A DNA stretch of 64,000 nucleotides, from contig OX597835.1 in assembly GCA_951406725.2 (NCBI GenBank), forward strand, positions 38,378,001-38,442,000. Direction: 5' to 3'. Both the position numbers and the translations under genes were made by a program. The notes under the pieces were generated by a model, which saw nothing but the letters and a program-made list of their open reading frames with translations, was not told where the DNA came from and did no database searches. This document shows positions 46,401 through 49,020 of the stretch, one piece after another (position 1 is the first letter of the stretch; the number at the start of each line of letters is the position of its first letter). The stretch comes from Octopus vulgaris. Its lineage: Eukaryota.

Positions 46401-46643
46401 ACATACATATGTGTATATATGTATATATATATATATATATATATATATATATATATATATATATATATATATATATATATATATATATATATATATATAT
46501 ATATATATATATATATATATAGCAAAATCAAGGAACGGCCATAATAGGCCATTCACCCACTAGAAATAACAGCCAAAGCTTCAACCGCAAAACAACATTA
46601 ATTCCGCAAACCAGGAGAAAATTAAAAAAACATTTACCCTGTA

Positions 46644-46750
46644 GTTCTTTATACGATGCACCGTTTCATCTATTGTTTAATGGTAAACTAACCTGATTAA
46701 ATTAAATCAAGCTAGTCTTCCATAGGCCGATAGATTCGTCAGTAAAGAAC
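46644..46750 (-). ncRNA. Type I hammerhead ribozyme, copy 3 (inverted)
   Basis: Reverse complement of 46997-47103. Confidence 0.9.
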
Positions 46751-46996
46751 GGCCAGATCGGAGCCGATATTTACACGAGGCACTTCTATCACTGTCTCGG
46801 CAATATCTGACCTAAAATTTTCAAATCATCGCACTCGCGCCAAATTTATCGGCAGCAAATATAAGCCGCCGATTCCATTACGGAATTAACCAGAAAATTC
46901 ATAATTAATCAATATATATGATTTGAAAATTTTAGGTCAGATATTGCCGAGACAGTGATAGAAGTGCCTCGTGTAAATATCTGCTCCGATCTGGCC

Positions 46997-47103
46997 GTTC
47001 TTTACTGACGAATCTATCGGCCTATGGAAGACTAGCTTGATTTAATTTAATCAGGTTAGTTTACCATTAAACAATAGATGAAACGGTGCATCGTATAAAG
47101 AAC
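46997..47103 (+). ncRNA. Type I hammerhead ribozyme, copy 1
   Basis: Stem I GTTCTTTA/TAAAGAAC; core CTGACGA 47005-47011; stem II closed by ATCTAT/ATAGAT; GAAA 47080-47083; stem III CGGTGCATCG; GUA triplet 47093-47095. Confidence 0.9.
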
Positions 47104-47481
47104 TACAGGGTAAATGTTTTTTTAATTTTCTCCTGGTTTGCGGAATTAATGTTGTTTTGCGGTTGAAGCTTTGGCTGTTATTTCTAGTGGGTGAATGGCC
47201 TATTATGGCCGTTCCTTGATTTTGCTGTTGAATTTATAAATGGTCTATGACTATTTAATTTTTTCCCACTAGGCCGCTGGTGGCAAAAAGAATTCTACGA
47301 AATTTTTTGCCACCCTATATTGATTAATTATGAATTTTCTGGTTAATTCCGTAATGGAATCGGCGGCTTATATTTGCTGCCGATAAATTTGGCGCGAGTG
47401 CGATGATTTGAAAATTTTAGGTCAGATATTGCCGAGACAGTGATAGAAGTGCCTCGTGTAAATATCTGCTCCGATCTGGCC

Positions 47482-47588
47482 GTTCTTTACTGACGAATCT
47501 ATCGGCCTATGGAAGACTACCTTGATTTAATTTAATCAGGTTAGTTTACCATTAAACAATAGATGAAACGGTGCATCGTATAAAGAAC
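47482..47588 (+). ncRNA. Type I hammerhead ribozyme, copy 2
   Basis: Same motif 485 nt downstream: CTGACGA 47490-47496, GAAA 47565-47568, GUA 47578-47580; one substitution in distal stem II. Confidence 0.9.
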
Positions 47589-49020
47589 TACAGGGTAAAT
47601 GTTTTTTTAATTTTCTCCTGGTTTGCGGAATTAATGTTGTTTTGCGGTTGAAGCTTTGGCTGTTATTTCTAGTGGGTGAATGGCCTATTATGGCCGTACC
47701 TTGATTTTGCTGTTGAATTTATAAATGGTCTATGACTATTTAATTTTTTTCCCACTAGGCCGCTGGTGGCAAAGAATTCTACGAAATTTTTTGCCACCCT
47801 ATATTGATTAATTATATATATATATATATATATATATATATATATATATATATATATATATATATATATATATATATATATATATATATATATATATATA
47901 TATACACACACACACATATATATATATATATATATATATATATATATATTTATATATATATATATATTTATATATAGCTCGCGGAGGCTTCGGCATAGTG
48001 CACAATGCCATTTTCTATGCATTTTCTTTCAAGATGTCATAGCTACCTCACTTTCGCCATATTTGGTTTCTTACCTTTGTATTGTGGTTCTCAACATCAC
48101 TATATGTGGTTTCCATGTAAATATAGCACATGCTTAAGCTGTTTCTCGTGAATTAGTTAACCTTTGTTCAGGTTAATATAGTCCAAATTACATTACACAA
48201 AGTATCGTTTTTAGAAAGGTTGCGCTGGGTTTGAGGGAGATTTGGCAATTACATCCATCAGGTCGAATGACAGTTTAAGGGGTAGTATTTTCCTTTCTAT
48301 GTATCAGACGCCGGAAGTTAAAATAATCATCAACTGCATCGGTTTCTCTAGTCTGAAGGTGTGTATAAATATTTACGGTAACTGCTTTTCTCCTTGTATC
48401 ACTAGCGCTACCACCACGACCACCACCACCAGCGACGCCTCCGCCATCTCCTCATCCATTTGTGCGTGTGTGTGTGTGAGAGAGAGAGAGAAAGAGAGTG
48501 AGAGAGTGAGAGTATATTTAGGTGTGAGTGTGTGAGTTTGAATGTGTACACGAAGCTATACACTGTTACCTGACAAACGTGTATTCTGATTCATTTAAAA
48601 GTAAAAAAACGTATACATTACACAAACATGTATCCACGCACACACACACACACACACACACACACACACACACAAACACACACACACACACACACACACA
48701 CACACACATATATATATATATACACACACATATATATATATATATATAAATACGCAAACGCATACATATGAATGTTGAAATTTTGCTCACGCATGTGTTT
48801 GTGTGTAGAGGTACACAGAGACACAAACACATATATGTATAATATATATATATCGAAAACTAAAAGCGGGTGCACAACACCGTATTGGTGGATAAATACT
48901 CTTTATTTGCGAGTTAGCAAGGCCACCAATGGTTTCATGTCGAGAGAAATTTCAACACATGAGTCCTTGGTGCTCGTCTCCAGCTTGTTAGTCCACGAAT
49001 AATATATATATATATATATA

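Follow-up and report, generated by a model that had tools for sequence, protein, structure and literature searches.

The 64,000-nt stretch of Octopus vulgaris DNA analyzed here (the window; GenBank assembly GCA_951406725.2, contig OX597835.1, positions 38,378,001 to 38,442,000 of the forward strand) carries a tandem repeat of 485-nt units, each containing a type I hammerhead ribozyme motif. The repeat belongs to a young, dispersed, genome-wide and non-autonomous family that was almost certainly mobilized by Penelope-like element (PLE) machinery. Its copies end at two fixed points 105 nt apart. The whole is probably best explained as a non-autonomous PLE of the non-LTR (long terminal repeat) retrozyme kind, built from a closed repeat of 485–492 nt. 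An earlier note, made from the sequence alone, had proposed a recently active non-autonomous retroelement moved by PLE machinery, and ~1,500 loci, 95–100% matches and PLE-type ends bear this out. Absent from the note are the length of stem II, the fixed position of the two 3′ ends, how large the family is, the signs of editing and the link to the Hydra clade of PLEs.

The repeat family and its hammerhead

Between two (TA)n runs, the window element joins a 396-nt inverted arm to 1.85 direct tandem units (Table 1; unit positions are counted from 47096). As the earlier note described, the units are near-identical (2 substitutions over 412 aligned bases, and 3 bases of indels; period 485 and 1.9 copies over 46918–47815 by tandem-repeat detection), a partial inverted copy lies upstream (99% complementary, itself with a hammerhead), (TA)n embeds the whole, and there is no credible open reading frame (ORF), the longest ATG-started frame in a unit concatemer being 18 aa. 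The window holds only one complete site-to-site unit, and the insertion ends correspond to unit positions 131 and 236, not to cleavage sites. For the circular 485-nt unit, the predicted minimum free energy is −142.9 kcal/mol (z = −4.7 against 40 shuffles). No tRNA was found in the window.

Table 1. Features of the hammerhead-bearing element and its flanks, in window coordinates.
Feature	Position	Strand	Remark
(TA)n target, left flank	46403..46520		run detected 46403–46521
Inverted 5′-truncated arm, unit 221–485 then 1–131	46521..46916	-	3′ end = putative tail-less start site, unit 131
Third hammerhead, on inverted arm	46644..46750	-	core from 46742; cut predicted at 46652/46651
Direct arm, 1.85 units (unit 308–485, 1–485, 1–236)	46918..47815	+	3′ end = putative tailed start site, unit 236
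Type I hammerhead 1	46997..47103	+	predicted cut after 47095
Site-to-site monomer, 485 nt, 37.5% G+C	47096..47580	+	predicted linear or circular RNA
Near-invariant motif, unit 76–91	47171..47186	+	~40–55 nt before short 3′ end
Four candidate A-to-I sites: 47180, 47186, 47195, 47205	47180..47205	+	A>G in RNA-like runs
Type I hammerhead 2	47482..47588	+	predicted cut after 47580
~105-nt "tail", unit 132–236, with 12-bp hairpin	47712..47815	+	between two putative reverse-transcription start sites
(TA)n target, right flank	47816..47976		run detected 47813–47976

CUGACGA cores lie at +47005, +47490 and −46742. In hammerhead 1, an 8-bp stem I pairs 46997–47004 with 47096–47103, followed by CUGACGA (47005–47011), a stem II arm (47012–47079), GAAA (47080–47083) and a stem III that is short and near-palindromic. 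The GUA triplets end at 47095 and 47580, so the predicted cuts delimit exactly one unit, as the earlier note had them. Its description of a canonical type I hammerhead stands for the core (8-bp stem I, CUGACGA, GAAA, GUA) but not for the stem II arm, which spans 68 nt between CUGANGA and GAAA and departs from canonical helix sizes with contacts between loops 1 and 2. A mussel retrozyme is also described without the usual loop contacts, so the feature is not universal among retrozymes. The hammerhead search that the note had proposed, run with Rfam, found no hammerhead in the window at the gathering score and none in 46500–47830 at E ≤ 10. A match to MIR8007, far below the cut-off, was rejected as the inverted junction of the element.

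The ribozyme region is predicted to fold stably (z = −5.78; none of 200 shuffles was equally stable), with the catalytically arranged fold 2.1 kcal/mol above the minimum, and in hammerhead 2 the distal part of stem II is weakened by a private G>C at 47520. Across the family, the 11 invariant core positions show a single deviant locus call over 54–57 loci. All four bases occur at position N7 (23 T, 25 C, 4 A and 2 G), and N17 holds A (45 loci) or C (12) and no other base; these are the hammerhead positions where catalysis tolerates variation. Stem I shifts register with compensation across copies. Such cleavage-compatible variation suggests that selection may act on cutting, and we consider it probable that the hammerhead is active in vivo. 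Several points weigh against activity. Since 20% of non-core columns vary, 11 quiet core columns arise by chance at ~0.09, and the quiet core is weak evidence by itself. In 17 of 20 predicted circular-monomer ensembles, stem I is largely open, the base of stem II is mismatched in 48 of 187 hammerhead occurrences (overlapping loci counted separately), and cleavage was reported for only one of nine predicted Xenopus dimers in the available text of Li et al. (2026, 10.64898/2026.07.22.740005). The idea of a switch, in which unit 1–13 pairs with the motif at 76–91 in competition with stem I, was dropped (pairing probability ≤0.06 in 20/20 monomers).

A DNA search of the genome returned 1,535 candidates; full-unit matches among the 40 scored were 95–100% identical and spread over many chromosomes. 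Exact 20-mers at unit 83–102 and in stem II had 4,129 and 2,848 genome matches, respectively, and their reversed controls none. The first 100 of the 4,129 matches represent 36 loci, which scales to ~1,500; 35 of the 36 form our unselected sample, and 31 loci picked for a full-unit match form the selected sample. Older subfamilies, ~12% from the window copy, have units of 488–492 nt. Arrays reach up to nine units and the longest arm 4,604 nt, and the flanks of the loci read show a preference for (TA)n targets. Inverted and tandem PLE structures are described as troubling assemblies (Craig 2021, PMC8557442), but a passive satellite or an assembly artefact has a negligible probability here: the copy-number check yields ~1,500 loci scattered through the genome, whose 3′ ends are fixed while their 5′ ends vary and which carry private mutations, and the sequence is present in contigs of four separate sequencing runs.

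Insertion ends and the copied template

Of the 62 arms aligned in the unselected sample, 58 have their ends at unit 124–141 or 229–245, i.e. at ~131 or ~236 (the four remaining arms were excluded from the counts; L157, a degenerate arm, was placed manually). Each inverted locus with both outer ends scorable combines one short and one tailed end (22/22 unselected, 21/21 selected, 43/43 in total; truncated outer ends not counted), and none of the 43 has two alike ends. PLE insertions are described as typically showing partial tandems, an inverted 5′-truncated arm, a 30–40-bp tail at one end and a (TA)n bias (Craig 2021, PMC8557442), and the tail was shown in vitro to be the stretch between two internal reverse transcriptase (RT) start sites (Frangieh 2024, PMC11167929). 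The family displays the same 5′ truncation, partial tandems, inverted 5′-truncated arm and tail at one end.

The near-invariant motif at unit 76–91 is common to several other two-ended repeat families and could be a candidate RT-recognition signal. The two arms of a locus often stop near the same unit position (L188, 15/17; L190, 185/184; L191, 46/49; L193, 29/29; L203, 83/86), which suggests joining at short palindromes or fold-back. In other two-ended repeats, at L038, L057, L091, L104, L264 and L265, the motif known from unit 76–91 was seen at a similar distance from their short end.

Because 37 of the 58 unselected arms cross the cleavage site, 16 of them at least twice, most templates were continuous there, as either a circle or an uncut multimer; a circle read by rolling-circle copying is preferred, at roughly even confidence. 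First-pass 5′ ends fall at unit 1–17 ten times (7 loci) against 0.9 expected, and those of later passes twice against 0.9 (unselected sample). Roughly one first pass in four stops immediately 3′ of the cleavage site, and three solo copies begin at it. This cluster of 5′ ends fits cut templates losing their last bases and RT stalling at stem I alike.

Within loci, units of the same arm differ at 260 of 39,173 positions and those of opposite arms at 186 of 24,850, compared with a median of 0.96% to the nearest other locus. Of 113 polymorphisms within loci, 101 are confined to a single unit. Fixation in every unit of the locus is seen for 13 sample-private variants (for 11 of them across both arms), and only one difference separates the two arms of a locus. 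In the ~12%-apart subfamilies, all units of one array are alike. The single-unit polymorphisms and the locus-fixed private variants fit what a single-unit template would predict.

Other observations weigh against a cut or circular unit as the template. In the selected sample, no 5′ end falls at unit 1–17 (1.1 expected), and the interval was picked post hoc. Across the genome, (TA)n joins unit position 8–10 at 20 places and position 1 at three, and the pile-up of 5′ ends lies mostly at 7–17. Two or more units of a locus share 12 of 113 polymorphisms. Of 121, 12 are seen again in other loci (mostly CpG; three arrays have the A/G site at unit 464), so mixed multimer templates or local duplication contribute. 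In Frangieh (2024, PMC11167929), hammerhead mutants are described as inserting normally, with unprocessed RNA as the main substrate.

Some of these points would be accounted for if uncut linear multimers were copied, the circle were irrelevant, local duplication homogenized the arrays and the hammerhead stalled the RT or cut as a side reaction. That alternative accommodates the variants shared by adjacent units in L133, L134, L126 and L131, the stop peak at unit 7–17 at the foot of stem I, and the RNA-like contigs that run across the cleavage site; local tandem amplification has also been proposed for retrozymes (Li et al. 2026, 10.64898/2026.07.22.740005). A linear multimer, however, should stall the enzyme at every unit, and the excess of stops is confined to first passes; stronger hairpins in the unit give no stop peak. 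The uniformity of divergent subfamilies within arrays, the preponderance of single-unit polymorphisms and the tolerated variation at N7 and N17, which suggests selection for cutting, also speak against it, and we consider it rather unlikely.

We hypothesize the following sequence of events. Tandem copies would be transcribed on the hammerhead-sense strand, as one-sided A>G changes (below) suggest, and the hammerhead would cut part of this RNA into unit length. Monomers would then be ligated into circles, by analogy with other retrozymes; that circles are made from the unit RNA seems somewhat more probable than that they are not. A PLE RT-endonuclease supplied in trans, most likely of the Hydra clade, would cut (TA)n on both strands, and each end of the target would prime cDNA at its own internal site, one at unit 131 and the other at unit 236. 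The RT would copy backwards through the cleavage site of a continuous template for up to ~9 units, and the two cDNAs would join at their truncated ends, leaving head-to-head arms with unequal outer ends. First passes that stop just 3′ of the site would derive from a cut template or a folded ribozyme.

RNA-like sequencing runs and candidate editing

Four of 24 listed runs were examined as contigs: three guessed to be RNA (X1, X2 and X9, from three studies under two organism labels, X9 being the other organism, with individuals unmatched) and one DNA-like (X15, large, kind unrecorded). At 47180, 47186, 47195 and 47205, A>G reached 11, 11, 7 and 15% of depth in X1, 79, 74, 14 and 51% in X2, and 95, 81, 28 and 54% in X9, compared with 0.04, 0.04, 0.14 and 0% in DNA-like X15. 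Genomic segments carry A at these sites in 135/135, 134/136, 135/136 and 135/137 cases, and T>C is listed at one or two places per run, one of them a genomic variant. Two of the sites (47180 and 47186) fall in the unit 76–91 motif. From this pattern we infer A-to-I editing of the hammerhead-sense RNA; the animal group of the host is known for heavy RNA editing. Against it, two of the four candidate sites are unpaired in the predicted monomer, and the runs count as RNA by guess and do not come from one individual.

Contigs cross the cleavage site in all four runs, the DNA-like one included, which fits a circle and an uncut multimer equally. A depth dip at 47436–47503 is likewise common to all four and was not used as evidence. 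A return of edited RNA into the genome as DNA was considered and rejected: genomic segments almost uniformly have A at the four sites, and A>G makes up 4 of the 13 variants fixed in a locus, too few to judge. As a lead only, one study includes X2, which holds the element, and X20 and X21, which have next to none of its words.

Candidate partners, related repeats and implications

The genome contains 6,136 GIY-YIG and 19,361 Hydra-type endonuclease candidates, of which 150 each were scored. No DNA likeness to the unit of the kind that a parent element would show was found in 30 GIY-YIG, 8 long Neptune-type, and 30 close plus 10 more distant Hydra-type loci. One Neptune-type family (L061–L068) has many intact 781-aa RT-GIY-YIG ORFs, ~98% alike, with an upstream ORF1, and targets (TA)n. 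Its pseudo-LTRs (pLTRs) measure 456–504 bp, its variant short hammerhead has a core beginning UUGAUAA, and its tail is 32–38 nt in three loci. The CX4CxxC linker indicates the Neptune or Nematis type by the motifs of Craig (2021), "Neptune" being a working label only. No sequence shared between this family and the 485-nt unit was found.

A Neptune-type flank held a second long-stem-II element, the 3′ end of another PLE (hereafter the sister element). By its motifs (CxCX5C linker, no CCHH, CxxC and CxH around E and N), this sequence is of the Hydra clade as defined by Craig (2021, PMC8557442); the same motifs ruled out an assignment to Nematis. Pfam matched nothing in the Hydra-type endonuclease or in a second Neptune-type fragment. 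Among more distant Hydra-type 3′ regions, at least 6 of 10 carry a hammerhead with a 56–60-nt insert; for PLEs with Hydra motifs overall, the inserts measure 55–60 nt. The tail of the sister element is 100 nt, and in 57 distinct sister-type ends (TA)n lies at 90–110 nt in 14, at ≤8 nt in 28 and otherwise in 15. At L205:1250–2420, a Hydra-element tail piece is joined to a 5′ end of the family, with inverted Hydra-element ends flanking. A large radiation of Hydra-clade PLEs with long 3′ UTRs (untranslated regions), long-stem-II hammerheads and ~100-nt tails was also observed (L210–L269). At L146:4769–5990, a Hydra-type short 3′ end abuts the 5′-truncated ORF of another Neptune-type PLE, a pyrimidine-rich one, without intervening (TA)n, possibly a template switch between PLE clades.

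By architecture (long stem II and ~100-nt tail), the Hydra clade would be the best-matching partner, and we lean toward it. Two facts temper this lead. The only DNA likeness of the unit to sampled PLEs is a 15-mer, with an alignment score of 62 where shuffles reach 73 (40 of 19,361 Hydra-type loci), and the short end lies 32–39 nt after the site in five local Hydra elements but 131 nt after it in the 485-nt family. A Neptune-type partner is an unlikely alternative, at odds with the 32–38-nt tail and short variant hammerhead of that family, compared with ~105 nt and 68 nt here, both of which Hydra matches. It does draw on the youth of the Neptune-type family, with intact, ~98% alike ORFs and (TA)n targets where the Hydra copies sampled are older and broken, and trans-mobilization need not require common sequence.

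The unit might instead be the pLTR, or 3′ end, of an autonomous PLE outside the sample, its tandem copies being truncated partial tandems. The abundance of PLE candidates, the similar size of the Neptune-type pLTRs and the identity of the sister element as a PLE 3′ end would allow for this. However, the unit is closed, with another unit, an inverted arm or target DNA always upstream. PLE ORF pieces flank 4 of 69 loci and in no case adjoin the unit on its upstream side, so none of these 69 occupies a pLTR position behind an ORF. Together with the lack of likeness in the GIY-YIG and Hydra-type loci, this makes a pLTR very improbable, a possibility that, for an already catalogued PLE, the earlier note had named as fatal to its proposal.

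The family matches the sequence definition of a non-LTR retrozyme, with tandem type I hammerheads in at least two consecutive units, no coding capacity, no LTR and a G+C content below 50%. The earlier note thought the unit long for the class: 485 nt is just above the 150–450 bp given by Cervera and de la Pena (2020, PMC7229834) but inside the 51–972 bp of Li, Clavereau and Pollet (2026, 10.64898/2026.07.22.740005), and hence within the described size range. The family differs from described non-LTR retrozymes by its 68-nt stem II, candidate A-to-I editing, 105-nt tail and strictly unequal ends. Its insertions are also distinct as short arrays, dispersed, with inverted arms of PLE type and a fixed pair of 3′ ends, and (TA)n allows no target duplication to be read. 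In the available text of Li et al., 24 of 57 Xenopus retrozyme families have transposable-element homology, whereas no parent pLTR was found here. [quoted passage not shown]

As described by Craig (2021, PMC8557442), Hydra-clade PLEs, including Hydra-1_Obim, resemble the family in (TA)n targets, a type I hammerhead near the 3′ end, 5′ truncation and inverted arms, and the local ones also in long stem II and ~100-nt tail; the family differs in having no ORF and no significant DNA homology to them. Published Hydra hammerheads have a loop 2 of 3–10 nt, and the one octopus Hydra family listed has a short loop (PMC8557442); that listing agrees with the earlier note's labelling of the element as cephalopod. 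The family also lacks the RT and GIY-YIG ORF that an autonomous PLE carries between pLTRs. The Poseidon element PAc of Anolis (PMC11167929) is alike in two internal RT start sites downstream of the hammerhead, an AT-rich target and extension on both strands, but it is autonomous and its tail is described as 30–40 bp; in vitro, its start sites did not differ between strands, whereas the arms differ in all 43 scorable loci here.

A loose long-stem-II pattern matched the genome at 8,918 places, compared with 90 for the control, and matches with a 55–80-nt stem II insert span many divergent families, tandem or inverted (e.g. L096–L125 and L146–L156). In the one case tested, Rfam was blind to such a hammerhead. 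Over 29 hammerhead groups, stem I has at least 5 bp in 8 (null mean 1.0) and is shorter or bulged in 21. A second tandem family, with a 594-nt unit, a long-stem-II hammerhead, a (TA)n target and a 104-nt tail (L129:1277–3834, L130, L150), shares only a short motif with the 485-nt family. Elsewhere in the window, a 221-aa open frame (11340–12001, minus strand) resembles a Tc1/mariner transposase fragment, and common interspersed repeats of a SINE-like kind lie at 43154–43506, 44045–44446, 46020–46400 and 49026–49374, one pair of them inverted (139-nt arms, 91%).

The class and its PLE link are already published, PLE copying of animal retrozymes having been proposed before; what appears new within the literature searched is the evidence from the insertions themselves, the lead to Hydra and the signal of editing. 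This search, with Repbase and Dfam outside it, found no cephalopod retrozyme, long-stem-II PLE hammerhead or edited retrozyme, and further invertebrate retrozymes may be listed in the supplement of PMC7229834. The available supplement text of Craig (2021, PMC8557442) gave no match to four motifs of the family. The study of Bonar (2026, PMC13282606) reports 190 Penelope-like families, with no mention of "ribozyme" in its available text, and its library may hold the repeat unlabelled; for the giant squid, 235 hammerhead-1 matches are reported (PMC6962438).

Tentatively, and at less than even confidence, the arrays might be read as a fossil record of rolling-circle retrotransposition, in which a Hydra-clade enzyme would copy an A-to-I-edited, ribozyme-made circle from two strand-dedicated priming sites. 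The hammerhead would then set the template, linear and finite for short insertions, circular and endless for arrays, and the family would be one of many in a radiation of ~9,000 long-stem-II hammerheads that escape standard models. Retrozyme mobility and the role of the hammerhead in PLEs are stated open questions (10.64898/2026.07.22.740005; PMC8557442). At the level of insertions, the copies studied here are evidence for PLE-style priming as the way in which a retrozyme-type repeat enters the genome, and they name a likely partner clade. With ~1,500 natural insertions, the form of the template (cut monomer, circle or multimer) can be read, and the rule of one tail per insertion constrains the PLE mechanism beyond a single in vitro study. 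Given the long stem II, searches with short-loop motif descriptors count too few hammerheads in genomes of this kind. Should the A>G signal hold, the family would add edited ribozyme RNA to an animal group that edits heavily.

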